Shown here one piece after another: positions 20,903 through 39,851 of a DNA stretch of 41,182 nt. A program made the position numbers and the translations under genes. Within the stretch, counting starts at the first letter, position 1. Every line of letters starts with the position of its first letter. Source of the DNA: Bacteroidales bacterium. GTDB taxonomy: Bacteria > Bacteroidota > Bacteroidia > Bacteroidales > JAOZVK01. Below the pieces are notes generated by a model, which was given only the letters and a program-made list of their open reading frames with translations, was not told the origin of the DNA and did not search any database. Location: positions 1 through 41,182 of the forward strand of contig JAOZVK010000003.1 of NCBI GenBank assembly GCA_029938185.1, in the 5' to 3' direction.

Positions 20903-21003
20903 GTCTTTGACCTATTTAATGTGGCTTACACATTTTTATAAATTACTATAAAGTAGCCAATTGTACAAAAACAAATGCCGAAAAACTTTTGTAAGACTAC
21001 TTA
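20900..21003 (+). mobile_element. MITE family A copy overlapping the stop codon
   Basis: taagtctttgacctattta...gccgaaaaacttttgtaagactactta. Confidence 0.8.
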
Positions 21004-21011
21004 ATAAATTG

Positions 21012-21159
21012 GGCTACCAGTTTTAAGTTAGACGCTTTTTAAACGCAAAGACACACAAAGTTTAACGCAAAGTTTCGCAAAGTTTTGCTAATCTTTACTT
21101 TAATTCTATGGTTAAAACTAATTGAAAAAACAAGACTGTCCAACTTCTGACGGGTAGCC
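21012..21159. mobile_element. MITE family C, 148 bp, IS1595-like ends, 8-bp target duplication
   Basis: TIRs GGCTACCAGTTTTAAGTTAGAC / GGCTACCCGTCAGAAGTTGGAC (17/22); ATAAATTG at 21004-21011 and 21160-21167. Confidence 0.85.
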
Positions 21160-21209
21160 ATAAATTGCAAATGGGATTTAATTTTCAAAATATAAATAAA
21201 TGAATATTG

Positions 21210-21339
21210 AAAAATAACCCGACCACCGAGCATCTTACGTGTTTTAGGTTAGTAGAGTCGGGATTTATGGTACCGAGCATCTTGATGTGTTTTCGGTTAT
21301 ACTAATGCAAATTTACAATTATATGATATTAAAATCAAA
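21210..21339 (-). ncRNA. Tandem-hairpin small RNA gene copy 2 (orphan, partly decayed)
   Basis: Homologous to 15984-16115; repeats 21225-21251 and 21272-21299; promoter TTTG-N20-TAAATTTG conserved. Confidence 0.6.
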
Positions 21340-21344
21340 TTTTA

Positions 21345-22244
21345 ATGAAAGAACATGAAAAAATTCAAAGACTAATTTATTTATTAAAATTATTGTCATC
21401 AAATATAGGATATTCACACAAGATGCTTGCCGAAAAAATTGGCGTAGTAGAAAGAACAATAAGAAGATACATAAATTCTTGTGAAAAAGCAGGCTTAGTT
21501 CTTAATAAAACAAACGGTTATTTTCGTTTAGAAAAAAACACACCTCATTTTAGAGAAATAAGTTCATTACTACACTTTTCCGATGAGGAGGCTGTTTTAC
21601 TTAACGAGGCGATAAATAAAATTGAGTTAAATTCAACTTCTACAATTAATTTAAGAAACAAACTATTTGCTCTATACAATTCAGACAGAATAAACTATCC
21701 AATTATAAAGAAAGAAGATTCTGGAAATGTAAAATTGATAATTGAAGCAATCAGAGCTAAAAAACAAATTAGAGTGATTAATTATAAATCATCTAACAGT
21801 GGAACTGTAATGGACAGGATTGTTGAACCTTTCGATTTTACAACAAACTATATTCATATTTGGGCTTATGAAAATGCATATTCAAAAAATTTCCTGTTTC
21901 GGGTTTCACGTATTGAAAATGTTGAGGTTTTAAAAGATGATTGGACAAATGAAAACAATCATAAAAAAGGAATAACCGATGTATTTAGAATGAGTGGAGA
22001 TACTAAAACCCCATTTGAATTAAAATTAACTACAGCCGGATACAATTATTTAATAGAACAATACCCTATGGCAAAACAATATATTGAAAAAAATAAGAAT
22101 AATATATATTTTTTGAACCATTGGTATGCTAATTTTCATGGAATAACAAAATTTATTTTGAGTGCAATGGATGAAGTTGAAATTATAAGTAACGAAAAAT
22201 TAAGAGATTACATAAATAATAAAATAAAAAACAAAATTTTTTAA
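21345..22244 (+). CDS. HTH-WYL domain transcriptional regulator
   Basis: N-terminal HTH (LAEKIGVVERTIRRYI), R.VEPF...IWAY...FRVSRI WYL domain, C-terminal WCX-like region. Confidence 0.92.
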   Translation: MKEHEKIQRLIYLLKLLSSNIGYSHKMLAEKIGVVERTIRRYINSCEKAGLVLNKTNGYFRLEKNTPHFREISSLLHFSDEEAVLLNEAINKIELNSTSTINLRNKLFALYNSDRINYPIIKKEDSGNVKLIIEAIRAKKQIRVINYKSSNSGTVMDRIVEPFDFTTNYIHIWAYENAYSKNFLFRVSRIENVEVLKDDWTNENNHKKGITDVFRMSGDTKTPFELKLTTAGYNYLIEQYPMAKQYIEKNKNNIYFLNHWYANFHGITKFILSAMDEVEIISNEKLRDYINNKIKNKIF

Positions 22245-22261
22245 TAATTATTAATGCAATT

Positions 22262-22294
22262 GACACAAGCTGTCCTACCTACAAACTACTTTTG
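22262..22294 (+). promoter_or_regulatory. Putative I-D operon promoter with palindromic operator
   Basis: GACA-caagc-TGTC at 22262-22274 where the -33 box would be; -7 box TACTTTTG at 22287-22294. Confidence 0.55.
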
Positions 22295-22431
22295 TAAACA
22301 TAAACAAATAGCAATGTATTACTATAAATATTTTTTTGTTTCTTCATAAGCAACTATTTGTTTGTGAGAGTTAGCATAAATGCATAAGCTATATAATAAT
22401 TGAACAAAAACTTTAACATACAATAATATAA

Positions 22432-25281
22432 ATGAAATATAAATTAACAGAAGAGTATTTTGAAACTTCAATTTTTCAAAAAACAGTTCAAGAATATTTT
22501 GATACTGTTTTAAAAGGCATTCTTAACTATAAAGATGTAATACAAGCCAAAGGACTTTTTATTATTGACGGAAAAGTTATGGCAGACCTATACGATATGC
22601 CATATCACATACATATTCTAAACGGACTTATTCCTTCCTTGTTTCTTTACGAAAAATTCCTTTCCGTTAGAGGATGGATAGGAAAAGATACAGAAAAAAA
22701 TAAGGAAGCAGAAATATATATAAAAACGTTTATACTTGGATTTACATTTCATGATGCTGACAAATTTACTGGAGCAAGTTGGACTAATGCTTTTAATGAA
22801 TTAGAGAAAATTAAAGATAAATTACTTGTATCAGAGTTTTTCCCCGAATTTGAAAACTATAAAAACGATGTGTATTTTTTAGCTTTGTCCACTGAAAATA
22901 GAACGGAAGTTAAAAAGAACAGATATGAAATAACTTTGGATTACAGACACTTAAATGAAATACTTGCACCTCTTTGCAATTTTGCAGATGGAATTGCTTC
23001 AATTCAGGAATTAGACGGTGTAGAAGTGTTTTATAAAGAGGCAGAAAAAGCGTTAGGAAAAATAAATCAAATTATTGATTTTAAAATTTCTTATATAAAA
23101 ATACACGAAAATCCTTACACACTTCTAAGTCAAAACTTATTGAATACCGCAGGCAAAGTATTGAAACAAAATGGACGTTCGATATTTTATACAATGCGAG
23201 ATGGTATTTTATTTTTCGGAAATGATTTGACAGATAAGGAAAAGGAACTGATTTTTGAAGAGTTTGAAAATAATCAATCGGATGATATTGACATAGGAAA
23301 ATTAGTAAAGGTAACAGCTCAACAAGCTGATTTATCTTCTATAGTTTCTATTGGAATAAGCGAATCAATACTAAATCAAATAATTCAAAATACTACAAAT
23401 AAATTCCTTTCACTCTCTCCAAACGGACAAGATAAAATTGAATATTTCGATGATTTCGTAAAATTTAATGAACTTCTTATTGAAAAGACCGAATTACCTA
23501 TAGATATTAAAATCAATAATAACAAATTATATTTGAATTTTTCTGAAACTGCATATGATGATAATGCTGAGTTCATCAAAATATTTGCTTTACAAAAAAT
23601 AATGTGGCAAAACGGAAAAATAAACAAAGTTTGGAGTAAAAGTTTTAACAACTTGATTACGTCAGATGAAGAATTAACTTTTGAAATTAATGAACAATTT
23701 CAAACAGGAGAAGATGAATATATTATATTAACAAAAATATCTGACCTAAAAAAATATTTTTCTTCAATAACAAAATCATCAAACGCTTTACTCAAAACAT
23801 ATATTTCAATAATAAAAGCCGTAAACATATTAAATACTTATGAAGATGACATTGACGACTGTATTAATGATTTATATAAAAATGTAATCAACTTCTTTTC
23901 TAATGACGAAAACGATGATAAAAGTGTTCTTTCTGAACTCTATAATAAATATTTCACATATAAAGGAAATAAAGATTTTTCTGCAATAATTGAAAATATG
24001 CCAATTGTTCCCATAAAAAAGAAAATGTGTGCATATACAGGAAAATTTGGAACAGAAAGATATGTTGAAAGCGTTGCTTTCGGGATGAATGCAAGAGGAT
24101 TTTCAAACCGGACTGTTGCATCATTGAAAAATAACATAAGCTTTGTTTCAAAGTTAATGGCAGAGGAGAATAAACTAAGAAAATCTTCTTTTGCTCGTCC
24201 AAAATCGAACCATGTTATATATTATGATTTTTTCGAAACGTCACTGGACATTAATCCCGATTTAATTAAAACTTGCATTAAATCAAGAAATCATGAAATA
24301 AGCAAAGATGGAATAGTAAAATTAGACAGAGCTGCAAAATTTCAGGCAAATTTAAAAAATTTGGAATTTACAGAAATAGGAAGTGATATGATAAGTGCAA
24401 TTTGGCTAGTTAGAAATAAACTTGTAATGGTTCAGAAATTAAATATCAGAATGTATATTACAGGTATAATGTCGCCATATCTCTCACATAAAGAGGTTTT
24501 TGTATATGAAAATGCACCACGCTTTATCAAAGATTTGAAGTGGAATATAATAAGGCTGCATGAAATACAAATGGTTCTTGACGAAATCAGTATTTTATTT
24601 GCACTTGGCAGAAGCCGAAAAAGTATAAATTCGGGTTTAGTTTTGAACTATGCAGGAAGTCCGAATTCGATTTTTCAGGCATTTTACCTTTTTGCAATGC
24701 AAAAAGAACAAAAAGAAGTTACAAATGTAGAGTATAAATTAATTGATTTTATAAATAAATATCCAAATAAATTTAAAAATATGACAACTATTGAAAAACT
24801 CGTTGACATTGCATTGAAAATAGATAGCAGTGCAAAAAGTGGTAGCGAGGAAACATGGCTGATACGAACAGCTTTAGATTTTTTAAGAAAAAATGTTAAA
24901 GAAAAACTCGGCAAAGAGGATACAATTCAGCAAATTGCAGGTAATATTTATAAAACAAAAAGATTGGAATACGCTGATGTTACTGTTATCGAAAATTTTG
25001 CAAGAGCTGTTTATGAAGAGCTTTATGAAAAACAATGGAAGAAATCGCTCCCGACAATTAACAGACAAAAAGATTGGATTTATCAATTTGGATTTGTTTT
25101 TAAACAAAAGTCTGTTCAAAGAATGAGACAATTAAAAGCCGCAAAAATCAAACGTGAAATAATAGAAAAAGGTTTAGAAGTAAATGAAGAAAACATTATA
25201 GCAAATTTGAAAAAAGATAAACTACAAAAATATGCCAACGAATATATAAAGTTAATTTTAAATAATGGTCTTGAACTATAG
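22432..25281 (+). CDS. cas10d: Type I-D large subunit Cas10d (N-terminal HD)
   Basis: 949 aa; HILNGL...FHDADK HD region; FSNR motif; followed by csc2, csc1 and a helicase-only cas3. Confidence 0.85.
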   Translation: MKYKLTEEYFETSIFQKTVQEYFDTVLKGILNYKDVIQAKGLFIIDGKVMADLYDMPYHIHILNGLIPSLFLYEKFLSVRGWIGKDTEKNKEAEIYIKTFILGFTFHDADKFTGASWTNAFNELEKIKDKLLVSEFFPEFENYKNDVYFLALSTENRTEVKKNRYEITLDYRHLNEILAPLCNFADGIASIQELDGVEVFYKEAEKALGKINQIIDFKISYIKIHENPYTLLSQNLLNTAGKVLKQNGRSIFYTMRDGILFFGNDLTDKEKELIFEEFENNQSDDIDIGKLVKVTAQQADLSSIVSIGISESILNQIIQNTTNKFLSLSPNGQDKIEYFDDFVKFNELLIEKTELPIDIKINNNKLYLNFSETAYDDNAEFIKIFALQKIMWQNGKINKVWSKSFNNLITSDEELTFEINEQFQTGEDEYIILTKISDLKKYFSSITKSSNALLKTYISIIKAVNILNTYEDDIDDCINDLYKNVINFFSNDENDDKSVLSELYNKYFTYKGNKDFSAIIENMPIVPIKKKMCAYTGKFGTERYVESVAFGMNARGFSNRTVASLKNNISFVSKLMAEENKLRKSSFARPKSNHVIYYDFFETSLDINPDLIKTCIKSRNHEISKDGIVKLDRAAKFQANLKNLEFTEIGSDMISAIWLVRNKLVMVQKLNIRMYITGIMSPYLSHKEVFVYENAPRFIKDLKWNIIRLHEIQMVLDEISILFALGRSRKSINSGLVLNYAGSPNSIFQAFYLFAMQKEQKEVTNVEYKLIDFINKYPNKFKNMTTIEKLVDIALKIDSSAKSGSEETWLIRTALDFLRKNVKEKLGKEDTIQQIAGNIYKTKRLEYADVTVIENFARAVYEELYEKQWKKSLPTINRQKDWIYQFGFVFKQKSVQRMRQLKAAKIKREIIEKGLEVNEENIIANLKKDKLQKYANEYIKLILNNGLEL
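24781..25281 (+). CDS. cas11d: Cas11d small subunit, internally translated from cas10d (predicted)
   Basis: In-frame ATG after A-rich aataaatttaaaaat; 166-aa helical domain; internal Cas11d translation is established for type I-D. Confidence 0.6.
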   Translation: MTTIEKLVDIALKIDSSAKSGSEETWLIRTALDFLRKNVKEKLGKEDTIQQIAGNIYKTKRLEYADVTVIENFARAVYEELYEKQWKKSLPTINRQKDWIYQFGFVFKQKSVQRMRQLKAAKIKREIIEKGLEVNEENIIANLKKDKLQKYANEYIKLILNNGLEL

Positions 25282-25339
25282 TTTTATTCAAAAAATAAAA
25301 TAGAGTTTTAAAAATAATATATAATAAAACAGTATAGAA

Positions 25340-26263
25340 ATGAAAAAAATATTTGATTTAATACCGAAAGAATATTTCGTAGAAAACCTGAAAGACAACA
25401 CCCTTGGAGTTGTAAAAATAGCATTATTACGAGAAGTAGTAAATCCGATGATTATCAGAAGTAATTTTGCTGATGAAACTATAACTTTTAAAGCAAATGA
25501 CGAAAAAGATTTAGTAGAAATTCCAGCAAGAAAGCTAAAAAGTAAAGAAAAACTAAGAGGCTTAAGAATTTGTAGAGAAATGAATGTAGTTGATAAAAGT
25601 TTGCGCTACAATGTTATACAAAAAAGTTTACATCTTGCAAATCCAAACTCCATTTTGTTTGGTGATTCGGTAACGGAAAGTAATGATGCAGTGGGTATAA
25701 CAAGTCGTGTTATTTACGATTGGGCATATTCGATACGTGATGTAAACGAAATAACAGATACTTTTCAGCACAATGCTTTAAGCGAAGGCGGAACAATGCA
25801 TGATGAAGTAAAAGGCGGTTTGAGACAATCTCTTTTTCAGGTACAATATGTTATGCCAAAGACATATTTTCCTCATTTTTTAACTTTAGAAAATGTTACT
25901 CCTGAGTTATTTGTACATATTTTATCATCGGTAATATACGAAACTCGCTACGGAGCACAAAGTACGACGCTTGGCTCAAATATGATAAACCACATTGTAG
26001 GAATAGGTTTTTCGAAATTTGAAGCACCTATAAACAGTTTTTCGATTGCGGATAATTGGACGGATAAAAAAGTAAATTTCGAAAATGTAAAATCTGCAAT
26101 AAATAAATCAATGAAAACATATTATAAAGATAATTACAAAGATGGTCTGCAATTTAAAAAATTAATTGACAATCTTTGGGAAAACAACGAGCTTCAACAA
26201 CATTATGATAAAGCAAAAGAAGATTGTACTAAATTATTAAAAGATACTAAAGTGATAAAATAA
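25340..26263 (+). CDS. csc2: Type I-D Cas7 (Csc2)
   Basis: PARKLKSKE, LFGDS, SRVIYDWAYS, RYGAQ motifs. Confidence 0.88.
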   Translation: MKKIFDLIPKEYFVENLKDNTLGVVKIALLREVVNPMIIRSNFADETITFKANDEKDLVEIPARKLKSKEKLRGLRICREMNVVDKSLRYNVIQKSLHLANPNSILFGDSVTESNDAVGITSRVIYDWAYSIRDVNEITDTFQHNALSEGGTMHDEVKGGLRQSLFQVQYVMPKTYFPHFLTLENVTPELFVHILSSVIYETRYGAQSTTLGSNMINHIVGIGFSKFEAPINSFSIADNWTDKKVNFENVKSAINKSMKTYYKDNYKDGLQFKKLIDNLWENNELQQHYDKAKEDCTKLLKDTKVIK

Positions 26264-26967
26264 TGGAAATAAAAGCAATAAAAATAAAATTGTTGAATCA
26301 CCTGTTTTATCATACCGAAATTTCAAACGGCTCGATTACAGGCGGTTTTTTGGGTGATTTGGCTTTAACTTATGCATTAAATAAAGCGTTAAATAATAAT
26401 GCCAATATTTATGAGCATCGCTTATTGCCTAAGTATTCAGAAATTAAAGAATTCGGATATTATTTTTCTGTAGCAAAACCTGTTGTACTTTCATCGGGAA
26501 AATACAATTATAAAAGCAAGCCAAGCAGAACGGGAAGCTATACCAGAAATACACTTTTTAATACAGACGGATTTTACGATATAAAAAGTATAGAAAAATC
26601 GGCAAAATCTCCTTTTAAAAACCTAATTCATACACAAGGAATTGCGCTTTCGAGCAAATACATTAAAAATGAATTTGTTACTTTATTGATTGCAAAAGAT
26701 AAAATAGAATTACCCCATACTTTAAGGATAGGTAACCAAAAAGAAACACTTTTGGAATTACAAGAACTAGATTTTAACAAAACAGATAATGATTTTTGGT
26801 TAAATGCATACACTCTTAAAGTGGTTTTTGATAATCTTAAAAAAGCTTCGGAAATTTCAATTGACGAAAATGGAACAATGAATTATCAATATATTTTAGA
26901 AAATTATGCTCTTATGAAGGGGTTTAGTAAAAATCAGGTCATTGAAATTTTTAAACATAATTATTAA
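26263..26967 (+). CDS. csc1: Type I-D Cas5 (Csc1)
   Basis: GDLALTYA and LP.TLRIG motifs; position after csc2. Confidence 0.8.
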   Translation: MEIKAIKIKLLNHLFYHTEISNGSITGGFLGDLALTYALNKALNNNANIYEHRLLPKYSEIKEFGYYFSVAKPVVLSSGKYNYKSKPSRTGSYTRNTLFNTDGFYDIKSIEKSAKSPFKNLIHTQGIALSSKYIKNEFVTLLIAKDKIELPHTLRIGNQKETLLELQELDFNKTDNDFWLNAYTLKVVFDNLKKASEISIDENGTMNYQYILENYALMKGFSKNQVIEIFKHNY

Positions 26968-26972
26968 ATCTT

Positions 26973-29000
26973 ATGAAAAATTTTTGTTTTAATATCAAAC
27001 CACAATATGTAAAGCAAACCAAAACAAAGGGTAAGTTCCCTGATGGTAAAGGCGGTTATAAAGAATTTCCTTTACATTTGGTTCAGAAACGAATGAAAGA
27101 AGACTTTGAAAAGTTTACAGACTTTACAATTATTACCGCTCCAACAGGAACAGGAAAAAGTTACGCCTTTCCTTTTCCTGTTCAAAACTCAAAGAAACAG
27201 AAGCATTTTGGAGGTTTACGTGATGGAAAAAAAGCTTTAATAGTTTTGCCAACAAATGCTTTGATTGACGAATTGCACGAAAATTTTACTGGTACTTTTA
27301 AGGAAATAAAAATAGGTAAACTTACAGGGAAATATATCACAGAATTACAAAAAAATGATGTGCAAAAAGGTACATTTACAAGGTTTACTAAAATACTTGA
27401 AATTTCGCAGCAGAATGATTTAATTATTACAAATCCCGATATTATTAATTATGCAATGCATGGTGGATACCATAAGTATAAAAGCAAAACAGGACGAAGA
27501 GAATTTCAAAACTTTTTGGAAGCTTTTGATTACATTGTATTCGATGAATATCATCTTTACGATGAAAGTCAAATTGCTAATATTCTTACTTTAACTTTCT
27601 TACGTGATATCTTCTTGGGCGAAAACAGAAAAATTAAATACTTTTTTGTGTCAGCAACTCCTGAACCCGGTTTGAAAGATATTCTAAAAACTTTTAATTT
27701 AGAATTTGAAGAGATAATTGAAAAAATTGTTGAAAATAAACAAAATGCAAGAGCAATTCACGGAAAATTAGAAATAGAAATTCATCAAACTACAAAATTT
27801 GCTCAACTTATTGAGAATAGATTTGAAGAAATTGAAGAACAAATTAAGGCAAAACGAAAGGTCTTGATAATTTTTGATAGAATAGCGGATTTATTTAATT
27901 TTTCTAAAACAATTTATGAAAAGTTTCCCAATTACAAAATTGTTAAAAGTACTGGATATGCTTCGAAAGAAGAATCTCAAAATGATTTAATAAAAACTGC
28001 AAATATTATTTTGGCAACCAACAAAGCTGAAGTTGGTGTAAACTATGAAGTTGAATATGCAATAATGCAACCGGGCAAATTTTATCGAAATTTTGTACAA
28101 CGTTTTGGTCGGGTTTCGAGAGGCGAAATGGAAGGTAAAATAATTGTAGCTGTAAAGGAAAATACAAGTTTCAACAGGCTTAAAAAAAATATTACCGAAA
28201 AAGAACTTGCTTATTATGATTTTTTGGAAAAAGCAAAAGAAGCATTTCAAAGCAAAAAATTTTATTCTGAAATTATACCTTCTTATATAGGAGAATATTT
28301 GTGGTGTATACAAAACAATTTGTATACGAAGGGAAATAAAAAATATTTGACAAAAGGAAACTACAGTACACTACAAGAGTTTAAAAGCAATATAAACAAA
28401 CTTGAATTTTTAAAAAATCCTAAATACTATATGCGTTTCAATTTGTTTCAAAATATTGATACACATATATCGAAGCTAAAAAATAATCACAAAGACGGAA
28501 TTACTGTTATTTCGATAATTGAATGGTGGGAAAAGTATAAAAATACATATTTAACTTTCAGAGATAATTCAAAAATAGTTGAAATTTATGACAAAGCACT
28601 TGATACAAATTTATCATATTCTTTGGAGTGGATTCTGCAATACAAAGAAATAATAGGAGAACCTGAAATTATTGTAAAAAAAGAGAATTACGAAATTGTT
28701 AAATATACAGTAGGTGAAATAAAGGAACGAGACAAAGACTTACAATACGAAATTTCCACAATCCCTACATTTACTGAAATACCTTGTATTTTGCATTACG
28801 ATGATTTATCTAATGATAGAAAAATTAAAGAAAGCTTCATAAGAAAGGTAGAAAAACTAAAAAGAAAATATAAAAAAGGATGGAATCCTATTGATAAACA
28901 ATTAGAAAATCTTTGTGAAAAGTTATTGGATTTATCAAATACATTCAACCGAAAAAGATTAAAAATAGAAAACATAATTTCAAACAATCAATTTTTATAA
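26973..29000 (+). CDS. cas3: Type I-D Cas3' helicase (no HD domain)
   Basis: APTGTGKS, PTNALI, TNPDI, DEYH, SATP, QRFGRVSR. Confidence 0.9.
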   Translation: MKNFCFNIKPQYVKQTKTKGKFPDGKGGYKEFPLHLVQKRMKEDFEKFTDFTIITAPTGTGKSYAFPFPVQNSKKQKHFGGLRDGKKALIVLPTNALIDELHENFTGTFKEIKIGKLTGKYITELQKNDVQKGTFTRFTKILEISQQNDLIITNPDIINYAMHGGYHKYKSKTGRREFQNFLEAFDYIVFDEYHLYDESQIANILTLTFLRDIFLGENRKIKYFFVSATPEPGLKDILKTFNLEFEEIIEKIVENKQNARAIHGKLEIEIHQTTKFAQLIENRFEEIEEQIKAKRKVLIIFDRIADLFNFSKTIYEKFPNYKIVKSTGYASKEESQNDLIKTANIILATNKAEVGVNYEVEYAIMQPGKFYRNFVQRFGRVSRGEMEGKIIVAVKENTSFNRLKKNITEKELAYYDFLEKAKEAFQSKKFYSEIIPSYIGEYLWCIQNNLYTKGNKKYLTKGNYSTLQEFKSNINKLEFLKNPKYYMRFNLFQNIDTHISKLKNNHKDGITVISIIEWWEKYKNTYLTFRDNSKIVEIYDKALDTNLSYSLEWILQYKEIIGEPEIIVKKENYEIVKYTVGEIKERDKDLQYEISTIPTFTEIPCILHYDDLSNDRKIKESFIRKVEKLKRKYKKGWNPIDKQLENLCEKLLDLSNTFNRKRLKIENIISNNQFL

Positions 29001-29002
29001 AC

Positions 29003-29659
29003 ATGAGAGTTCATATACAATTTTCAAAATCAAAAGAAATAATCCCTTTTAATCATCAAGAAGTATTAACAGGCGCATTTCATAAATGGATTGGTAAAAA
29101 CAACATACACGATAACTTATCGCTTTATTCGTTTTCGCGACTGAATGGTGCAAGATTGAAAAAAGATGGTTTATATTTTCCTTCACAAGCAAAATGGTTT
29201 ATAAGTATTTACGATAAAGATTTGTTTAAAAAACTTTTGTCGGGTATTTTAGATAAACCAGAACTGAGATGGGGCATGATAGTAAATAATTTTTTTGTAC
29301 AGCAAGAGCCAGATTTTACTTTTCAAACAGAATTTAAAGCAGCAAGTCCAATTTTTATTAAAAGAAATATAGAAAACAATCAAAAACATTATATTTTCGA
29401 TGATAAAAAAACATCGGAGCTTATGATAGAAACCTTACAAAACAAGATGAGAAAAATCGGTTTAAAAGATGATAGTTTAAAAATTGAATTTTCGACAAAA
29501 TATAATAATCCAAAAACTGCAAAAATAACATATAAAGGTATTGAAAACAAAGCAAATATTTGTCCTGTAATAATTAAAGGAAAGCCCGAAACAAAGGCTT
29601 TTGCATGGAATGTAGGAGTTGGAAATTGTACTGGAATTGGATTTGGGGCTATCTCTTAG
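29003..29659 (+). CDS. cas6: Cas6 of the I-D module
   Basis: Gly loop GVGNCTGIGFG; clearly related to the other two cas6 genes. Confidence 0.93.
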   Translation: MRVHIQFSKSKEIIPFNHQEVLTGAFHKWIGKNNIHDNLSLYSFSRLNGARLKKDGLYFPSQAKWFISIYDKDLFKKLLSGILDKPELRWGMIVNNFFVQQEPDFTFQTEFKAASPIFIKRNIENNQKHYIFDDKKTSELMIETLQNKMRKIGLKDDSLKIEFSTKYNNPKTAKITYKGIENKANICPVIIKGKPETKAFAWNVGVGNCTGIGFGAIS

Positions 29660-29709
29660 TGTGTTTTAATTATTAATATTGTAAACTGGTATAATTGTAA
29701 ATTTATATT

Positions 29710-29814
29710 TAAGTAGTCTAACAAAAGTTTTTCGACATTTGTTTTCGCACAATTAATTATATGACAGTAATTTATTAAAATGTGTAAGACACATTAAATA
29801 GGTCGAAGACCTTA
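29710..29814 (-). mobile_element. MITE family A copy
   Basis: taagtagtctaacaaaagtttttcgac...taaataggtcgaagacctta. Confidence 0.82.
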
Positions 29815-29876
29815 ATGTTTTTCGATTTATGTAAAGTGTAAAAAATGCCAAAAGTGAAAAAAAAACCAAATTATTA

Positions 29877-29916
29877 CCTAAGAAATTTGTTATTAAAGTA
29901 AACAATATTATCTTTG
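29877..29916 (+). promoter_or_regulatory. Module 4 promoter overlapped by CCT plus protospacer
   Basis: TTTG(29886-29889)-N19-TATCTTTG(29909-29916); CCT 29877-29879; 29880-29901 matches spacer 29966-29987 at 19/22. Confidence 0.8.
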
Positions 29917-29942
29917 CATAATTATTTGTTAAAATAGATTTT

Positions 29943-30017
29943 GGTAAGTACACAGGAATTGAAAAAAGAAATTTGTATTTAATGTAATTTCTACTTTAAT
30001 CGAACCATGTACTTACC
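29943..30017 (+). ncRNA. Stem-clamped split-repeat CRISPR-like regulatory RNA 2 (CreR-like)
   Basis: Perfect 10-bp stem GGTAAGTACA/TGTACTTACC enclosing CAGGAATTGAAAA, a 28-nt spacer and CTTTAATCGAACCA; T-run follows. Confidence 0.78.
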
Positions 30018-30045
30018 GTTTTTTTATAAGATAAAAATTGTATAA

Positions 30046-30705
30046 ATGAGAATACATTTAAAATTATCAAAAAATACAAAACTTGTACCCTATAGTCACC
30101 AACATAAACTTGTGGGAGCTATACACAAATGGCTTGGCAAAAATGATTTGCATGGAAAAATATCTTTATATTCATTTTCTCGCTTGCAAGGTGGCAGTAG
30201 CAATAAAAAAGGTCTTGATTTCAAGAATGGAGCAAATTGGTTTGTTAGTTTCTATAACGATGATTTTTTGAAAGATATAGTTTTTGGTTTAATGAAAGAC
30301 AAGCCAGAGATTTTTAACGGTATGCAGGTTGAAACTGTCACAATTCAAGAAACACCGGATTTTACTAATACCACTTATTTCAAAATAGCAAGTCCTATCC
30401 TGATAAAGAGAAACGATGGGGGTTTTATAAAGCATTTTTTGTATACCGACAAAGAAGCACCCGAACTGCTTACTGAAACACTCCGCAGCAAAATGCAACA
30501 AGTAGGTTTAACAGATGATAGTTTGAAAATAGAATTTGACACCAATTACTCTAAAGCATCTGCCAAACTAATAGACTACAAAGGAATTAAAAACAAAACA
30601 AGTTGGTGTCCAGTTATAATTCACGGAAAACCAGAAACTAAGGCTTTTGCTTGGAATGTGGGAGTGGGGAGTTCTACTGGTGTTGGTTTTGGGGCTTTAA
30701 TTTAA
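30046..30705 (+). CDS. cas6: Cas6 copy 2 (intact)
   Basis: Gly loop GVGSSTGVGFG; near-identical to 12310. Confidence 0.94.
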   Translation: MRIHLKLSKNTKLVPYSHQHKLVGAIHKWLGKNDLHGKISLYSFSRLQGGSSNKKGLDFKNGANWFVSFYNDDFLKDIVFGLMKDKPEIFNGMQVETVTIQETPDFTNTTYFKIASPILIKRNDGGFIKHFLYTDKEAPELLTETLRSKMQQVGLTDDSLKIEFDTNYSKASAKLIDYKGIKNKTSWCPVIIHGKPETKAFAWNVGVGSSTGVGFGALI

Positions 30706-30724
30706 AATAATAATAATAATAAAA

Positions 30725-32866
30725 ATGAGTTTAGATACAGTTTTAAAAATAGGTAAAGCATTAAGAAATTCAAAAGATAATTTAAAATACTTTAAATATG
30801 TTGGTTCTGTAAAGGCTGATGTTAATAAAAAGAAGGAAAAGAATTATCCGATTTGCATAACGATTCCTGTAAAAGAAGATTTTACTTTTGATTGGGAAAA
30901 CATGGATTTAACACCCGAAAATCAACGAGATGATTTGTATTATTTCAAATATGAAACATCAAATAATGATACCAGCCCTAAGAAATATCTTTTTGGAGAT
31001 ATTTCTTATATTAGGCGTAATGGAATTGACACCAAAGGTAAGATAAAATCTACTAAAGACTTTGGAAATTACACATTAGAGAGAGGTAATGCTTTTGAGA
31101 ATGGGAAAAACATATTAAATGAAATAAAACTAACATATTTTGAAGAGGAAATAAGAAAAACAATTAACAATAGTAATATTGAAAATTTAAAAGAGAAAGA
31201 TGAAATTATTAAACAATTGATTAAATCTTATAAAATCAATAAAGAAGTTAAACTATCAAATAAGATAGAAAAGTATAAAGATGAAATTATTGAAATATCT
31301 CAAAAAGTAAATCAAGATATAAGTGAAGTAACCTTATTTGATTTTCATAGTAGATTTGAAGAATTCTCAGATAAAATTACATTAATATTAAAATATGCAT
31401 CAGCTTTTAATTTTTTATTGGAAGAATCAGAAAAAATAAACGAATATTTATCTAATAAACAAAAGTTAGTTGATTTATACACTAAAGTCGTTGTTAAACA
31501 GATTAATCCACGTGTTTTAAAGAAAATATTAAAAAAAGATGAAGATATAGAAGACTTATCAGAAGAAACAAAAAACAAAATATCAAGATATGCAAATTTT
31601 GAAGTTTTTTTACATTTTGATTATCAAGGTAAAAGTTGGTATAAATTTAAACAATCATTTGACCTTTTAAATGAAAAATTAAATTCTGGAGTTACAGATA
31701 ATACAGATTTTGGGAAAGTGCCATCAAAAGCAATATACAGAACATTATGCTCTGGAAATGATAGAAATGACATTCAGTTTCCTCAGTTTGATAAAAATAA
31801 TAGAATGAAGTCATTTTTCTTTAAAGGTGATGAATTTATTGATTTTCTACATAGTGAAATTTTTCTCGAAAAACCTTTAAGACGTTTACAAGGAACAAAA
31901 ATTGAGTTCTATGTTTTACCAGTAGCAATAAATGAAAATAAACAAATAACAGCAACGGATTATGATATTTTTTTAAAATTACAGGACGAAGTTCGTATTA
32001 AAATATATGATAAAGAAATTGACGAAGAACCTCTTTTTTCTTTTTTCGATGAGGAACAAATTAATTTTACAAAATTTGATTTTATTTTTACTGATGCAAG
32101 CGGAAATTCAAAAAATGATTTAATTGAAATATCTGGATTAGAACAAAGTAAATTAAAAGAAATAGCCAAAAGAATTGAAACAATTAATAATGAGGTAAAA
32201 CAAGAAAAAAAGAAATATTTAAGAACACAAAAAGAGCAATCTAATTTCAAAATAGAATACTCTTTTCGAAATATTTTAGGCAATCACTATTACGATGAAA
32301 AGACAGGAAATTCAAGTGTAAAAGCAAATCCAAAATACCAATCACACTTATTAAAGGTTTTGCCTTTAATATACACTGACAATTATCAAAATGACGAAAT
32401 GTTATTGTCTGCATTTATTCAAAATGTGGAGCATATTATTCGAAGTTTTAAGAAATATATAAGTAGTCAATTTATTAAGTTGAAGTATGACTTGATGTTC
32501 TTATATAAAATTCAAAATAATAATTCTAAAAATGATAAATTTATGGAAATAACAAATTCAAAAAGCTACAAAATAGGTTTGCAGCTTGGTAATTTAGCAA
32601 AAAACCTAACATTAGAAATTAATTCTTTTGAAAAAAATTATGTTGGAAATCTCAGCAGACGATTAAGCACACTGCCAGACTTCGTTAAATTAAAAAATGA
32701 TATTGAACAAAAATTAATAATGCACGAAAAAACAAAATATACTTTTCAAACTTCTTATGATTTAGCTCAGGAAGTAAAAAAGTTTAGTGGTCAGTATGAT
32801 AAAGAAAAATGTGCTTTCGGTTTTTTAGAAAGCTACTTTAAGCCGTTACCAAAAAAACAAATATAA
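30725..32866 (+). CDS. cas8b: Type I-B Cas8b (module 4); candidate internal Cas11 from ATG 32543
   Basis: 713 aa between cas6 and cas7; helical C-terminus SYKIGLQLG...CAFGFLESY. Confidence 0.78.
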   Translation: MSLDTVLKIGKALRNSKDNLKYFKYVGSVKADVNKKKEKNYPICITIPVKEDFTFDWENMDLTPENQRDDLYYFKYETSNNDTSPKKYLFGDISYIRRNGIDTKGKIKSTKDFGNYTLERGNAFENGKNILNEIKLTYFEEEIRKTINNSNIENLKEKDEIIKQLIKSYKINKEVKLSNKIEKYKDEIIEISQKVNQDISEVTLFDFHSRFEEFSDKITLILKYASAFNFLLEESEKINEYLSNKQKLVDLYTKVVVKQINPRVLKKILKKDEDIEDLSEETKNKISRYANFEVFLHFDYQGKSWYKFKQSFDLLNEKLNSGVTDNTDFGKVPSKAIYRTLCSGNDRNDIQFPQFDKNNRMKSFFFKGDEFIDFLHSEIFLEKPLRRLQGTKIEFYVLPVAINENKQITATDYDIFLKLQDEVRIKIYDKEIDEEPLFSFFDEEQINFTKFDFIFTDASGNSKNDLIEISGLEQSKLKEIAKRIETINNEVKQEKKKYLRTQKEQSNFKIEYSFRNILGNHYYDEKTGNSSVKANPKYQSHLLKVLPLIYTDNYQNDEMLLSAFIQNVEHIIRSFKKYISSQFIKLKYDLMFLYKIQNNNSKNDKFMEITNSKSYKIGLQLGNLAKNLTLEINSFEKNYVGNLSRRLSTLPDFVKLKNDIEQKLIMHEKTKYTFQTSYDLAQEVKKFSGQYDKEKCAFGFLESYFKPLPKKQI

Positions 32867-32889
32867 ATTAATATTAAAGATATAAAATT

Positions 32890-33888
32890 ATGTCAAAAAT
32901 AAAAAAATCAGAAATTTTATTCTTGTATGAAAGTTCATACAATATTCCAAACGGAGACCCTTTTACAGGCGAACAACGTTATGATGAAGAAACTAAGAAA
33001 ATTTTAGTTAGTGATGTTAGAATGAAACGCTATGTAAGAGATTATCTTTTAGATAAAGACAAAGATATTTATGTAGTTAATGATAAAAGCTTTGCTGAAG
33101 GTAAAGAATCCGGTTCGGCTTCACGTATAAAATCTTTGCAAAATAAATTTGAAACGGAACTAAAAATTGAAAAAGAAAAGATAGAAGCTGAAAATAAAAA
33201 GAATAAAACTAAATTAAAATTCAGCCCTGCAATGTTCGTAATGAAAAAATGTGTTGATGTACGTTTATTCGGAGGTATTGCAACAGGAAAAGGTGATGCG
33301 ATAAATTTAACTGGAGCAGTTCAGTTTTCACTTTTAAATCCATCTTTAAACAAATCTACTTTAAGAATGCACCAAAATACAACAGTTTTTAGTTCAAGTG
33401 CTGAAAAAGGTCAAGGCTCAATAGGAACAACAACACTTGTTCCTTATGCCGTAAACCAAATACATGGTTGGGTAAATTCAAAAGTTGCTGAAAATACAGG
33501 AATGTGTAATAATGATTTAAAACTAATGTATGAAGGTCTTTGGTATGGCACAAGTGGCGAAGGTAGTTCGCATTCAAGAAGTAAAATCGGACAAAATTCA
33601 TTATTGTTATTAGAAATAGTTTATGCTGAGAATAATAAAAAAGTATATAGCGTAGATAAATTGATAAAATTAACCCCAAAAGAAGGCAAGAAAGATGAAG
33701 AAATCCGAAGCATGGACGATTATGATTTGGATTTTACAAAATTATTAGAAGTAGCAAAGTCTGATAAAGTTTCAAAAATTAGATATTATTCTGAATTAGA
33801 CAGTATTAATGATATGTTTGAAATAGATGGTAATTTTAAAAGTAAATTAGAAAAATTATCTTTTGAGCCAAACAAAAAAACTGAATAA
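32890..33888 (+). CDS. cas7: Type I-B Cas7 (Csh2), module 4
   Basis: PNGDP, VSDVRMKRYVRDY, DVRLFG, TGAVQF, SRSKIGQ. Confidence 0.94.
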   Translation: MSKIKKSEILFLYESSYNIPNGDPFTGEQRYDEETKKILVSDVRMKRYVRDYLLDKDKDIYVVNDKSFAEGKESGSASRIKSLQNKFETELKIEKEKIEAENKKNKTKLKFSPAMFVMKKCVDVRLFGGIATGKGDAINLTGAVQFSLLNPSLNKSTLRMHQNTTVFSSSAEKGQGSIGTTTLVPYAVNQIHGWVNSKVAENTGMCNNDLKLMYEGLWYGTSGEGSSHSRSKIGQNSLLLLEIVYAENNKKVYSVDKLIKLTPKEGKKDEEIRSMDDYDLDFTKLLEVAKSDKVSKIRYYSELDSINDMFEIDGNFKSKLEKLSFEPNKKTE

Positions 33889-33890
33889 TT

Positions 33891-34604
33891 ATGAAAGGAT
33901 TTCAATTTATAGTTGAAGGAAACTGGGCACATTTTAAGAAACCTGAAACAAATAATAATCCGCTTTCACACGATTTAATCACAAAAACAGCTCTGATTGG
34001 ATTAATCGGAGCTGTGCTTGGAATTGAGCGAAATGAAATGAAAGCTAAATTTCCTGAATTGTCAGAAAGCTTGTTGTATAATGTTCAGTTACTTAGTCCT
34101 GTAAAGAAAACATCTTGGGGGTTTACAAGTAAAAAAGCAAATAGCCCAACTGCAAGTGGTTCACCTAAATATTTTGAATTTCTTAAAAATCCAAAATTTA
34201 AAATTTCTTTGGCACTAAAATATAATGTTTCTAAAAATATTTTTAATTCTTTTTTACAATCTGTAAAAAGAGAAGAAACTATTTATCCGCCTGTTCTTGG
34301 TTGGCATAACTGCCCAGCAAATATTAGTTTTTTTTCAGAAGGCAAATTTTCTGAATTAAAAACAGGTGAGTTTGAAACAAAAGGATTTGTATTAGCAGGT
34401 GGAGAGCACAAACCAACAAATATTACAGGAAAATTTCGTATTGGTTTTGATAAATTACCTACTTATCAAGATGATGATTTTTGGAATTTACCTGATAAAT
34501 ATCGACAAATTATTTATCCTGATTTTCCTCATTCACTACAAATTAAGGGCGATTATTATGAATATATTACAAACTCAAATGTTGAAAAATGGTGGCTAAT
34601 GTAG
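33891..34604 (+). CDS. cas5: Type I-B Cas5, module 4
   Basis: GNWAHFKKPET, KTALIGLIGAVLG, YPPVLG motifs. Confidence 0.92.
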   Translation: MKGFQFIVEGNWAHFKKPETNNNPLSHDLITKTALIGLIGAVLGIERNEMKAKFPELSESLLYNVQLLSPVKKTSWGFTSKKANSPTASGSPKYFEFLKNPKFKISLALKYNVSKNIFNSFLQSVKREETIYPPVLGWHNCPANISFFSEGKFSELKTGEFETKGFVLAGGEHKPTNITGKFRIGFDKLPTYQDDDFWNLPDKYRQIIYPDFPHSLQIKGDYYEYITNSNVEKWWLM

Positions 34605-37048
34605 CGAAATTGAAATCACATCCAGATAAACTTTTATTTGATCATGTTGATGGTGTCCTTAAAAATGTAAAAAAGCTCACTAATTTGAAAATAGCTGAAT
34701 TGGTTGCGATTTTTCATGACTTAGGAAAAATTAATCCTAATTTTCAAAAAAAACTCAGTGGCATAAAGACTGGTGAATACTCACATCATGGGTATTTGTC
34801 AGCTTATGCTTTTTTGTGTGCTTTTGCATCATCACCTGCAAATCAAGAAATACTTGGCAATTGGTTAAGTAAAAAGATAAGTAAAAATGATTTAATTGCA
34901 TTAACAACAATCATTGCAAAGCATCATGGTAATATTCCTGATTTCACACCAAAAGATGAAACTGGAACTGGAGCTTCTATATTAAATAAGGAAGAGAATG
35001 AAAAATTATTCGTTTTTTTAGGTAAGGGGATAAATCTTCCTGTTGAGGAATTTACGAAACATTATTTCTCAGAAATAAAATCTTTTTATCCATTTTTGGG
35101 AAATCCTCTTGTTCAAAAGAAATTCAAAGACGAATTTATTTTTGATTATAGAAAAAACAACAATCCTCTTGATTATTATTTAGATACTCAATTTTCTTTT
35201 GCAAGTCTTATTCAAGCAGATAAAGTTGATGCTGCAAAATTGGGAAATTTTATTGATGATAATAAATCAAATGTAGAGCAGTTTTGTGGCAACTATAATA
35301 TATGCTTAAATTCTTATCTAAGCAAATTAAATCAAGATTCTGAAATAAATAAACTACGAACAAAAATAAGGCTTGATGCTGTTGGTCGAATAAAAAACGG
35401 ATTACAACAAAACAAACAAGTCTTTGAATTAACAGCCCCGACAGGCTCAGGAAAAACACTTATGATGTTGTCACTTGCTTCCGAAATTATTAAGCAAAAA
35501 GGAGCAAAAAGGATTATTTATTCATTACCATTTTTATCAATCACAGAGCAGGTCGAAGCAGAAGTTTTAAAAATATTTAGCAATCAAAAGCAATTTGTTC
35601 AAAGGATAGATTCTAAATCACAAAATAAAACTTTTGAAAATTTACAAAAAGAATTTGATAAAAATCCGAGTAAAGAAGTAATGAAAAAAATTAATATGAT
35701 TGAGTTTCAGGAAAATACTTTTTCATATCCCTTTATAATAACAACATTTGTTCGTTTTTTTGAAACATTATTAACTAATAGAAATGCTGATTTATTAAAA
35801 CTTCCGAATTTTTCAAATTCAATTTTCTTAATTGATGAAATTCAGGCACTTCCACCAAGGTTATATACTTTTTTCACAGCATATTTAAGCAAATTTTGTG
35901 AAAAAAATGGAAGTTATGCAATTATTTCTACGGCTACACAACCAAATTTTAATTTGCCTGAAAAAGATGAAATAAAAGAATTTTTCAGTAATTATTCAAA
36001 ACCTTTTAAATTACTCTCACTTGATTATTTTCAAAACGAGCTTTTTAATAGATATAAAATTATTATTGATAAAAAAGGAACAGATATAGCTGAATTAAAA
36101 GAAAAACTTATAAAATCAGAAAAATCGGTTTTAGTAATTTTAAATACCATAGATGATACGAAAGATTTGTATTCTTTATTAATTGAAGCAGGTTTATCAA
36201 AAAAAGATACTCTTTTGCTAAATACTCATATTACTCCCAAACATAGAAAAATTAAAATCTATCTGGCAAAACGTAGATTAAGAGAGAATAAAAAAGTAAT
36301 TTTAATATCAACACAACTTATTGAAGCAGGTGTAGATATTGATTTTCCTGTTCTCTATCGCGATATGGCAACAGTTTCAAGCATTGTTCAATCAGCAGGA
36401 CGATGTAACAGAAATGGAAAACTCAAAGATAAAGGTATTGTTAATCTTATTCGTTTTAAAAAGGACGGAAGAGAAAGAGCAAAACTGATTTACCGTGATG
36501 GAAATAAAGAACTATTAGGTTTTACAACAAAAGCATTACAGTTAGAAAATTATCAGGAAAAAGAACTTTTAGATGTTCAGAAAAAATTTTTTGATAGAAT
36601 TTTAAAAGAATTGCATTTTGCAAAACATATACAGCAAGATCCAAGACAAGATTTCGATTTTTTAAATGACATTAAAGAAGCTCAATTTAACAAAATAGGT
36701 GAATTTAATTTAATAGATAAAGGAGTATTTGGTGAAGAAATGCAATATTTTATACCTAAAAATGAAAATGACAAATCTTTTCAGCTATTAAATGAATATA
36801 TTGAGGAATTAAATATTATTATTAATTTTAACAAAAAAGATTGGAGTATTGTTAAATTAAAGAAAAATAAGATAAAAATATTAAGAAAAAAAATGTCAGA
36901 AAATATTGTCCAAGTAAGACTAAAAGAAGGTCAATCAAAACCAATTACAAATAATTTTACAAAAGATAGAAATTTACACGAAATAGCACTTTCTTCATAT
37001 TCATTTGAAAAGGGAGTGGATTTACAGGGAGAAGATATCTGGTTATAA
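34589..37048 (+). CDS. cas3: Cas3 nuclease-helicase (N-terminal HD)
   Basis: SHP..L.DH, HDLGK, KHH, APTGSGKT, DEIQ, QSAGRCNR. Confidence 0.96.
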   Translation: MVANVAKLKSHPDKLLFDHVDGVLKNVKKLTNLKIAELVAIFHDLGKINPNFQKKLSGIKTGEYSHHGYLSAYAFLCAFASSPANQEILGNWLSKKISKNDLIALTTIIAKHHGNIPDFTPKDETGTGASILNKEENEKLFVFLGKGINLPVEEFTKHYFSEIKSFYPFLGNPLVQKKFKDEFIFDYRKNNNPLDYYLDTQFSFASLIQADKVDAAKLGNFIDDNKSNVEQFCGNYNICLNSYLSKLNQDSEINKLRTKIRLDAVGRIKNGLQQNKQVFELTAPTGSGKTLMMLSLASEIIKQKGAKRIIYSLPFLSITEQVEAEVLKIFSNQKQFVQRIDSKSQNKTFENLQKEFDKNPSKEVMKKINMIEFQENTFSYPFIITTFVRFFETLLTNRNADLLKLPNFSNSIFLIDEIQALPPRLYTFFTAYLSKFCEKNGSYAIISTATQPNFNLPEKDEIKEFFSNYSKPFKLLSLDYFQNELFNRYKIIIDKKGTDIAELKEKLIKSEKSVLVILNTIDDTKDLYSLLIEAGLSKKDTLLLNTHITPKHRKIKIYLAKRRLRENKKVILISTQLIEAGVDIDFPVLYRDMATVSSIVQSAGRCNRNGKLKDKGIVNLIRFKKDGRERAKLIYRDGNKELLGFTTKALQLENYQEKELLDVQKKFFDRILKELHFAKHIQQDPRQDFDFLNDIKEAQFNKIGEFNLIDKGVFGEEMQYFIPKNENDKSFQLLNEYIEELNIIINFNKKDWSIVKLKKNKIKILRKKMSENIVQVRLKEGQSKPITNNFTKDRNLHEIALSSYSFEKGVDLQGEDIWL

Positions 37049-37422: not shown

Positions 37423-38466
37423 ATGAATATCGAAAAAACAAGTTCAAAATTATTTGTTGATGTAAAACAAATGATTTCAAATGCTAGACGAAAAGTTGCT
37501 GTAACTGCCAATAGTGAATTGATTTTGCTGTATTGGAAAGTCGGTAACAGAGTAAGAAAAGATGTATTAAACAATAGCAGAGCTGAATATGGTAAACAAA
37601 TAGTAAAAAAATTATCCAATAAATTGACAATAGAATATGGCAGAGGATGGAGCGAAAATCAGTTGCGACATTGTATTAGAAGTGCAGAGACTTTTCAGAA
37701 AGAACAAATTCTCTACGCAGTGCGTAGAGAATTGTCATGGACTCATATCAGGTCACTAATGTATATTGATGATATTCTTAAAAGACAATTTTATATGGAA
37801 ATGTGCATAATAGAACGATGGGATACTCGATTGCTTAACAATAGAATTGACAGTATGCTTTTTGAACGTACTGCAATATCAAAAAAACCAAAAAAACTAA
37901 TCAAAAAAGAATTAGACAAATTGCAAAAAGATAATGAATTACCAGATGATTTAATTTTTAGAAACCCCTATTTGTTAGATTTTCTCGGTTTGAAAAATAT
38001 TTATTCTGAAAAAGATTTAGAAAATTCTATATTAGTTGAAATGCAACAATTTATTACAGAACTCGGTTCTGATTTTGCATTTCTTGCACGTCAAAAACGC
38101 ATTACTATTGATAATATTGATTATCATATTGATTTATTATTTTATCACAGAACACTTCAATGTTTAGTAGTTATAGAGTTAAAACTCGGTAAGTTTAAAC
38201 CTGAACATAAGGGACAAATTGAATTATATTTACGATGGCTTAACAAATACGAAAAACGAAAAAATGAGAAAGCACCAATCGGCTTAATCTTATGTAGCGA
38301 AGGAAATTCAGAGCATATTGAATTGCTGATGTTAGAAGACAGTAATATTAAACTTGCTCAGTATTTAACTGAGTTACCAGATAAAAAAATTCTTGAAAAA
38401 CAATTAACAAAAACAATTAAGAAGGCAAAAAAAATGAAAAATAAAAATACAAACAATAAATTATGA
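37423..38466 (+). CDS. yhcG: YhcG/DUF1016 PD-(D/E)XK nuclease family protein
   Basis: LYWKVG, LSWTH, PYLLDFL, ELGSDFAFLARQKRI, IDLLFYH, IELK. Confidence 0.93.
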   Translation: MNIEKTSSKLFVDVKQMISNARRKVAVTANSELILLYWKVGNRVRKDVLNNSRAEYGKQIVKKLSNKLTIEYGRGWSENQLRHCIRSAETFQKEQILYAVRRELSWTHIRSLMYIDDILKRQFYMEMCIIERWDTRLLNNRIDSMLFERTAISKKPKKLIKKELDKLQKDNELPDDLIFRNPYLLDFLGLKNIYSEKDLENSILVEMQQFITELGSDFAFLARQKRITIDNIDYHIDLLFYHRTLQCLVVIELKLGKFKPEHKGQIELYLRWLNKYEKRKNEKAPIGLILCSEGNSEHIELLMLEDSNIKLAQYLTELPDKKILEKQLTKTIKKAKKMKNKNTNNKL

Positions 38467-38529: not shown

Positions 38530-38635
38530 TATATAGTCTAACAAAAATTTTTTCGACATTTGTTTTCGCACAATTAATTATATGACAACTGTTTATAAGA
38601 ATGCGCAAGTCACATTAAATAGGTCGAAGCCCTTA
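38530..38635 (-). mobile_element. MITE family A copy
   Basis: Close to the 29710 copy; ends taaataggtcgaagccctta. Confidence 0.8.
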
Positions 38636-38681
38636 TGTTATAGCTTAACAAAGTGTCGATTTTATACGATAAGCTACTTAT

Positions 38682-39849: not shown

Positions 39850-39851
39850 CT

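Follow-up and report, generated by a model that had tools for sequence, protein, structure and literature searches.

The DNA analysed here (positions 1 to 41,182 of contig JAOZVK010000003.1, assembly GCA_029938185.1, from a Bacteroidales bacterium; the whole stretch of 41,182 nucleotides (nt) is called the window) carries an element, E4, in the leader of a type I-B cas6-cas8b-cas7-cas5-cas3 operon. Taken as a whole, the explanation that E4 encodes a CRISPR RNA (crRNA)-like regulator of the CreR class, built from two halves of the host CRISPR repeat and enclosed by a clamp of complementary arms, is probably correct. The core of this explanation, namely a guide that represses its own promoter and thereby the operon behind it, is very likely on its own, with the roles of the clamp being graded separately below.

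E4 occupies the intergenic region between the cas6 gene of the third effector module of the locus (ending at 29659) and that of the fourth module (starting at 30046). From its 5′ end it consists of a clamp arm, the 3′ end of a repeat (psiR1) with an 8-nt handle, a spacer (psiS), the 5′ start of a repeat (psiR2), the second clamp arm and a T-run (Table 1). A preliminary description, made from the letters of the DNA before any database search, had placed these parts base for base where they were found, and had predicted from the two halves what the repeat of the host array should look like. The prediction is right, as the repeat ATTTTAATTGAACCGTATTGGAATTGAAAC, present in 111-113 copies on host contig C21, agrees with it down to the three-base gap (N3) between the halves. 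Both halves are derived from this repeat: the psiR1 portion GGAATTGAAA agrees with it at 10 of 10 positions, and psiR2 is identical to TTTTAATTGAACCG of the repeat at 11 of 14. The handle ATTGAAAA corresponds to ATTGAAAC of the C21 repeat, and the putative Cas6 cut in psiR1 would fall between 29957 and 29958. No AATYGAACC-like 5′ half was found within 30 nt upstream of psiR1, which is thus left without the Cas6-binding repeat start, just as psiR2 is without the cleavage end.

E4 is not a canonical array, having no full repeat and a spacer of 28 nt versus the ~36 nt implied for the C21 array, whose period of 65-67 nt implies spacers of ~35-37 nt. It shares with the CreR class its site between cas genes, a psiR1 with an 8-nt 5′ handle, a psiR2 with the Cas6-binding repeat start, and a partial seed match to a cas promoter beside a putative protospacer-adjacent motif (PAM), but in place of two repeats of about full length only 13 and 14 nt are repeat-like. 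A toxin gene under the repressed promoter, the mark of CreTA and CrePA, is absent, only 20 nt lying between the T-run and cas6. The clamp stem has 10 base pairs (bp), four of them G-C, and is followed by one G and T7, as are the stem and U-run of an intrinsic terminator, but the 55 nt between the arms do not make a short terminator loop, and the site did not appear in a consensus terminator scan that allowed loops of 3-8 nt. The interior of E4 is predicted to pair further, the 3′ end of psiS (AATTTCT) lying opposite the seed (AGAAATT).

The evidence that carries the core of the explanation is the match of the E4 spacer to the promoter region upstream of it. Positions 1-11 pair perfectly and the mismatches fall at positions 12, 13 and 18, of which 12 and 18 are sixth positions; a CCT directly precedes the target, which overlaps the -33 TTTG box. 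This match had been reported in the preliminary description and held on recount. The TTTG/TAnnTTTG pair, which we take to be the Bacteroidota promoter form, makes the overlapped stretch a candidate Bacteroidota-type promoter by consensus match only. The consensus TTTG-N17-23-TAnnTTTG occurs on the plus strand of the 41-kb window at the E4 leader alone, and the -7 box is the sole TAnnTTTG within 29660-30046. The 5.7-Mb host genome contains 30 matches to the sorting domain of the type IX secretion system (T9SS), compared with 0 in 14 control genomes, together with a SusC-type protein, which fits Bacteroidota.

The seed and PAM match is beyond chance. When the E4 spacer was shuffled, 20 of 5000 versions found a seed of at least 11 in the 283 nt of 29660-29942, and none of these was preceded by CCN; among the 44 CCN-plus-seed sites of the whole genome, the promoter of E4 itself was the best and the runner-up reached 17/22. 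As for the structure, a 10-bp arm was obtained in 0/500 shuffles of the 3′ flank, the duplex energy of the E4 flanks was reached by 0/1000 shuffles, and the predicted fold of the 75-nt unit has an energy of -17.1 kcal/mol (z -3.67), equalled by 0/200 shuffles. That E4 could be a non-functional relic of a degraded CRISPR array, its promoter match and stem being accidents of AT-rich DNA, is therefore highly improbable. The G+C content of the host genome is indeed only 27.7%, and some matches to the survey pattern described below lie in coding DNA and are probably due to chance, but the tests on seed and PAM, arm, duplex and fold all disagree with a relic, a second element of the window obeys the same rules, and elements of other genomes show the rule of PAM and seed again.

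This second element, E2, is located between the cas3 gene of module 1 and module 2. It shares the handle and the PAM of E4, its target lies just upstream of a -7 box TATTTTTG at 15479-15486, its psiR2 agrees with the start of the host repeat at 13 of 13 positions, and its enclosing helix of 17 pairs ends in a T-run. Since E2 and E4 have different spacers and arms and yet follow the same rules within one locus, they provide strong internal support for a common design. A second candidate target of E2, on contig C615 (20/22), lies inside an open reading frame (ORF) in low-complexity DNA and was set aside as chance. Within 15488-15994 of the window, E2 directly precedes an LPD3-domain ORF (PF18798, E 8.8e-18). 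In published CrePA modules the guide represses a protein toxin encoded between cas3 and cas8, and the layout of E2 and the LPD3 ORF appears similar, as a likeness of gene arrangement alone.

Table 1. Coordinates of E4, E2 and the effector modules in the window
Feature	Position	Strand	Remarks
PAM-like CCT of E4	29877-29879	+	directly 5′ of target
Target (protospacer) of E4 spacer	29880-29901	+	19/22 match
Promoter consensus (candidate)	29886-29916	+	-33 TTTG 29886-29889, 19 nt, -7 TATCTTTG 29909-29916
E4 5′ clamp arm	29943-29952	+	GGTAAGTACA, 10 nt
E4 psiR1	29953-29965	+	CAGGAATTGAAAA, 3′ end of repeat only
E4 handle, 8 nt	29958-29965	+	ATTGAAAA
E4 psiS	29966-29993	+	28-nt spacer
E4 psiR2	29994-30007	+	CTTTAATCGAACCA, 5′ start of repeat only
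E4 3′ clamp arm	30008-30017	+	TGTACTTACC
E4 T7, after one G	30019-30025	+	terminator-/attenuator-like end, 20 nt before cas6 ATG (30046)
E2 PAM CCT	15444-15446	+	
E2 target	15447-15464	+	seed 10 nt, 17/18 match
E2, whole	15488-15568	+	
E2 5′ arm	15488-15506		
E2 GGAATTGAAAA	15510-15520		
E2 spacer	15521-15533		13 nt
E2 TTTTTAATTGAACC	15534-15547		
E2 3′ arm	15550-15568		with T6
Module 1, I-B-like with cas6-cas3			cas7 at 7897, cas6 12310-12981, cas3 at 12986
Module 2, I-A-like			Csa2-type cas7 at 17899
Module 3, type I-D	22432-29659		csc2, csc1, cas3′, cas6
Module 4, type I-B operon	30046-37048	+	cas6-cas8b-cas7-cas5-cas3
Module 4 cas6	30046-30705		
Module 4 cas8b-like	30725-32866		
Module 4 cas7	32890-33888		
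Module 4 cas5	33891-34604		
Module 4 cas3	34589-37048		

Related elements were sought in public genomes, metagenomes and viral contigs with a pattern of two exact half-repeats 8-33 nt apart, which returned 45 stretches in genomes, 38 in metagenomes and 1 in viral contigs (loci of this survey are cited by L numbers); many of them are ordinary arrays. The viral-contig match has the sequence of L055, with full psi-repeats and no clamp. For the seed-target test, 19 of the 45 public-genome loci were chosen by eye, with arrays and coding-looking matches left out. In this test, 21 stand-alone elements chosen by eye were searched for a site within 600 nt that agreed at no fewer than 9 of the 10 positions 1-5 and 7-11, and 16 of them had one. 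The PAM was not imposed, but the best site followed CC[AT] in 13 of these 16, from which CCN could be taken as the putative cognate PAM. Position 6 was the sole mismatch among the first 11 in five of these, which reach 10/10 only with this position left free. When the test was rerun on all non-redundant stand-alone hits (those in which the handle motif occurs no more than twice in 400 nt, n = 52), a CC-flanked target was found for 19 elements.

The targets of related elements are mostly 29-205 nt upstream on the same strand. Cas-linked elements beside cas6 lie upstream on the same strand in L011 and L041 and are divergent from cas6 in L032, L034, L035, L061, L080 and L083. A search for Cas6 in 61 genomes of the same order found only copies ~50% identical or less, and no comparable element was present upstream of four such copies (L003, L004, L005 and L007). 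The guide function is well supported because the PAM and seed targets in the relatives match the behaviour of CreR and mini-arrays, so that the proposal of a crRNA-like guide with seed and PAM on its own promoter, already made in the preliminary description, has gained support from the same logic in E2 and the related loci.

In the mechanism that we propose, transcription would start a few bases past the -7 box, and the RNA would fold as one long imperfect hairpin, in which the clamp, GG with CC, the handle with the psiR2 start, and the seed with the spacer 3′ end pair in succession, ending in U7. Most transcripts would stop at U7 and the rest would read on into cas6. A guide with the 5′ handle AUUGAAAA, the 28-nt spacer and a psiR2-derived 3′ handle could then be loaded into the type I-B Cascade, and the complex would bind the CCT-flanked site over the -33 box and lower the expression of guide and cas operon alike. 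Repression would be relieved once Cascade is lost or titrated away. Since pairing stops after ~22 nt, the complex is proposed to repress rather than to cut. By its position, the putative stop signal lies between the sole consensus promoter and cas6, so that the operon would have to be read through it. The clamp could thus have two roles that do not exclude each other: it is somewhat likely to act as a terminator stem or attenuator in this locus, and it might, more tentatively and with doubt prevailing, allow Cas6 on psiR2 to mature the 5′ handle.

Because the arms of different elements are unrelated and of unequal length, a MAFFT alignment would not bring them into register, and duplex energies were used instead of a pair count, with the 24 nt before GGAATTGAAA set against the 34 nt after GAACC, and cross-pair and shuffle controls. 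Seven of the 52 elements (E4, E2, L028, L035, L054, L060 and L072) pair better than all 102 cross-pairings, and six of the 52 were reached by no more than 1/1000 composition-matched shuffles of their own flanks and L054 by 18/1000, the remaining elements being evenly spread from 23 to 987/1000. The arm sequences differ in every clamped element, whereas the layout is kept: the distance from GG to the arm is 1-4 nt and that from CC 0-5 nt (L060, with 11 nt, is the exception), and the 5′ half of psiR1 is missing in 7/7. Weaker clamps with the same layout are seen in L062 and L047. Clamp lengths range from 10-11 bp in E4 and 10 pairs in L028 to 17-19 pairs in E2, L054 and L060 (19 in L060). It is quite likely that the clamp is a selected part of the RNA. 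Contigs from four metagenome DNA runs contained no variants at 29836-30039, and hence no natural compensatory changes in the arms.

Two side observations concern the same family of elements. At L072, the clamped element (6818-6912) is found on a metagenome contig at a syntenic junction of a module-1-like cas3 and a Csa2-type module, where it is on the opposite strand and adjoins an unrelated 124-aa ORF. In psiR1 of L041 and psiR2 of L059/L064, a longer hairpin replaces the GAACC-GGAAT middle of an otherwise whole psi-repeat, which points to a repeat family whose middle can accommodate a longer helix.

The clamp might be nothing more than an intrinsic terminator or attenuator with a stabilising end, in which case the guide would mature without it and the split repeat would be an extreme case of psi-repeat degeneration. 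This is rather unlikely, although the position of U7, directly after the 3′ arm and 20 nt before cas6, speaks for it, and the 3′ arm likewise runs straight into the T-run in E2 and L028. The unclamped elements L019, L023, L032, L034 and L083 have an ordinary local terminator hairpin at the same place, right after the psiR2 start, and a terminator replaces psiR2 in creA as described in PMC8501985 and in V-A CreR. However, the strong clamps of L035 and L072 and the weak ones of L062 and L047 are accompanied by a separate terminator (a hairpin plus T-run in the former two), and the clamp of L060 has no T-run, indicating that termination is not the whole story. The loop of E4 is also far beyond the usual form of a terminator, and the strong clamps all occur at a psiR1 without its 5′ half.

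Improbable as well is a clamp that serves as double-stranded RNA substrate for a host RNase, for example RNase III, to give a Cas6-free guide with ends trimmed to the part protected by Cascade. The long clamps of E2, L054 and L060 would suit such an enzyme, but a duplex of 10-11 bp is a short substrate for RNase III, and the clamps of E4 and L028 are of this size. Type I-B interference is reported to work with crRNA made independently of Cas6b (PMC4326828), yet psiR2 keeps precisely the nucleotides that have been described as Cas6-binding.

We therefore return to Cas6 and the two half-repeats. For the Cas6 of the related haloarchaeal I-B systems, binding to the initial 12 nt of the repeat has been described, and the RNA is suggested to be wrapped around the enzyme (PMC9458426). 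In the predicted fold of E4, GG pairs with CC and the handle with the psiR2 start, the same pairs as predicted for the intact repeat, with the clamp in place of the repeat loop; according to this model, the clamp would put the sole binding half beside the sole cleavage site in the topology of an intact repeat. The search among solved structures gave only 5yi6 (Cas6 1, E 1.1e-05), which does not decide between ways in which this Cas6 might read RNA. The split-repeat idea is plausible, being coherent and having some comparative support. In its full form, which we hold to be a speculative and rather doubtful extension, one Cas6 on the psiR2 start would cut the psiR1 handle site of the same RNA, the clamp would replace the middle of the repeat, a circularly permuted repeat would wrap the spacer, and one Cas6 would serve each guide, making the gene self-contained; the arrangement would have evolved more than once, each time with other arms, in Bacteroidota and further lineages, and here could also work as an attenuator that possibly depends on Cas6. 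The wording of the preliminary description, one repeat split and permuted, in part only re-describes the known trend of psiR1 and psiR2, but elements that have wholly lost the other halves and are enclosed by a clamp do exist and recur.

Several observations weigh against the explanation as a whole, and against the role of the clamp in particular. Promoter, PAM and cleavage site are each putative, and the survey required exact half-repeats, so that its sample is biased. For the clamp and U7 of the window, termination alone would be a sufficient explanation. The hairpin of the native repeat is weak (-2.5 kcal/mol, with 45/200 shuffles folding equally), and among the clamped elements L054 is marginal (18/1000 shuffles) and its locus has no cas gene. 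L019, L023, L061, L080 and L083 have a truncated psiR1 and a CC-flanked target with no clamp, which means that the clamp is not needed for this class. Clamp and truncation are not significantly associated among the 19 elements with a target (6/16 vs 0/3, Fisher p = 0.30), and a test on the length of perfect runs is weak (L028 37/500, L035 38/500, L054 285/500).

With respect to known systems, CreR is reported to repress cas promoters through partial pairing and to respond to crRNA load and anti-CRISPR (Acr) proteins, its psiR1 keeping the handle and its psiR2 the 3′-handle side, with a seed match beside the PAM of a cas promoter in its short psiS (Liu et al., 10.1101/2023.03.10.532045). As described for types I-B, I-E and V-A, CreR resembles E4 as a degenerate mini-CRISPR placed between cas genes, with handle-side psi-repeats and a PAM-adjacent promoter seed, and the sensing of Cascade availability by autorepression may apply to E4 by analogy. 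Unlike the CreR described there, E4 keeps no more than a half of each psi-repeat (13 and 14 nt) and is enclosed by complementary arms, and its RNA lies inside the cas6 leader, on the cas6 strand, with the targeted promoter upstream of it. For type I-B, mini-arrays next to cas6 are described as targeting the cas6 promoter or nearby sequence (Shmakov et al., 10.1101/2023.03.03.530964), and they resemble E4 in position, in a cas6-promoter target with an I-B PAM, in the partial seed match and in the composite locus. Their upstream repeat is described as near to the array repeat and the downstream one as degraded, whereas the upstream repeat of E4 is without its whole 5′ part. The passages of that report covered here mention no enclosing stem, and its supplementary files could contain cases. 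Pairing that leaves every sixth base free is stated in the CreR and mini-array literature for type I-F1, and the pairing described for type I-B creA covers positions 1-5 and 7-11 (PMC8501985).

A 3′ end set by a terminator rather than by a full second repeat, as proposed for E4, is described for the one-psiR creA of H. hispanica (PMC8501985) and for V-A CreR/Cracr, with a single psiR and a rho-independent terminator (10.1101/2024.10.29.618823), but E4 differs from these descriptions in keeping the psiR2 start and in forming the putative terminator stem with the 5′ leader rather than as a local hairpin. Another likeness is to the Haloferax I-B icrRNA (PMC4326828), a Cas6b-independent guide that works with non-canonical ends; according to that report it is engineered and processed by tRNA enzymes, whereas E4 is natural. 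The preliminary description had named no literature precedent for the permuted, clamped architecture. The guide class and the sensing of crRNA load or of anti-CRISPR inhibition have in fact been published, while the clamped half-repeat build was not found in the CreR, mini-array and Cas6 literature searched, in which supplementary files were outside the search. The function of E4 thus belongs to a published class, and the possible novelty may lie in the clamped half-repeat build.

The window contains four type I effector modules in tandem (6045-37048) with one cas4-cas1 set in common (39343-41061), and three cas6 genes. The guide might therefore be used mainly by another Cascade of the locus, for example that of module 1, resulting in cross-regulation rather than autorepression. 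In its favour are the 97% identity of the Cas6 proteins of modules 1 and 4, a DNA duplication that begins 12 nt upstream of the ATG, and E2, which has the same handle and PAM and lies between modules 1 and 2. Mini-arrays are also reported to be more abundant in composite loci (10.1101/2023.03.03.530964). Even so, this is unlikely; the sequence assigns the guide to no single Cascade, but E4 is in the leader of module 4, just as in the single-module loci L011 and L041, and autorepression of module 4 is preferred. At the DNA level, the cas6 genes of modules 1 and 4 are 97-98% identical (12298-12597 vs 30034-30333), with the identity beginning directly past the T-run of E4. No guide element was found in the leader of module 1 cas6 (11520-12310), and no element of the E4 kind in the other leaders of the window at 5100-6045 and 19540-22460.

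The 713-aa ORF that follows cas6 in module 4 had no match in a family search, and is assigned to cas8b by position only. A second CRISPR array of the host (contig C122, 342-2830, 32 copies of a 37-nt repeat) possibly belongs to the I-D module; no clear piece of its repeat was found in the leaders of the window. A gene for a DUF1016/YhcG PDDEXK nuclease (37423-38466) lies between module 4 cas3 and cas4. Repeats of ~100 nt that resemble miniature inverted-repeat transposable elements (MITEs) occur in both orientations between the modules (2856-2966, 5658-5750, 12131-12223, 20898-21004, 29709-29820, 38531-38641 and 39234-39326), and in four metagenome runs from hydrothermal vents their summed contig depth is in the thousands, whereas the unique DNA on either side reaches ~7-37. 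The first gene of module 2 and a WYL/helix-turn-helix (HTH) regulator gene have their leader and initial codons in common through a 150-nt duplication, 92-96% identical (15987-16136 and 21210-21360). Further duplicated stretches, 81-99% identical, follow modules 2 and 4 (19568-19948/37112-37527 and 20227-20734/38679-39069) and include a 143-aa ORF whose family was not assigned. The locus has the appearance of a mosaic assembled through recombination.

All that E4 retains of a guide gene is one handle end, one Cas6-binding start and a clamp, and the clamp is met again, with unrelated arms, in unrelated genomes. Its place in the cas6 leader, before a U-run, would couple the dosage of the guide with read-through into the operon within 150 nt. 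If Cas6 does act across the split repeat, E4 would reveal the way in which Cas6 enzymes of the wrap-around kind recognise their RNA and would explain how a psiR1 can lose its binding half, and it could also provide a compact single-guide expression design for type I-B tools.

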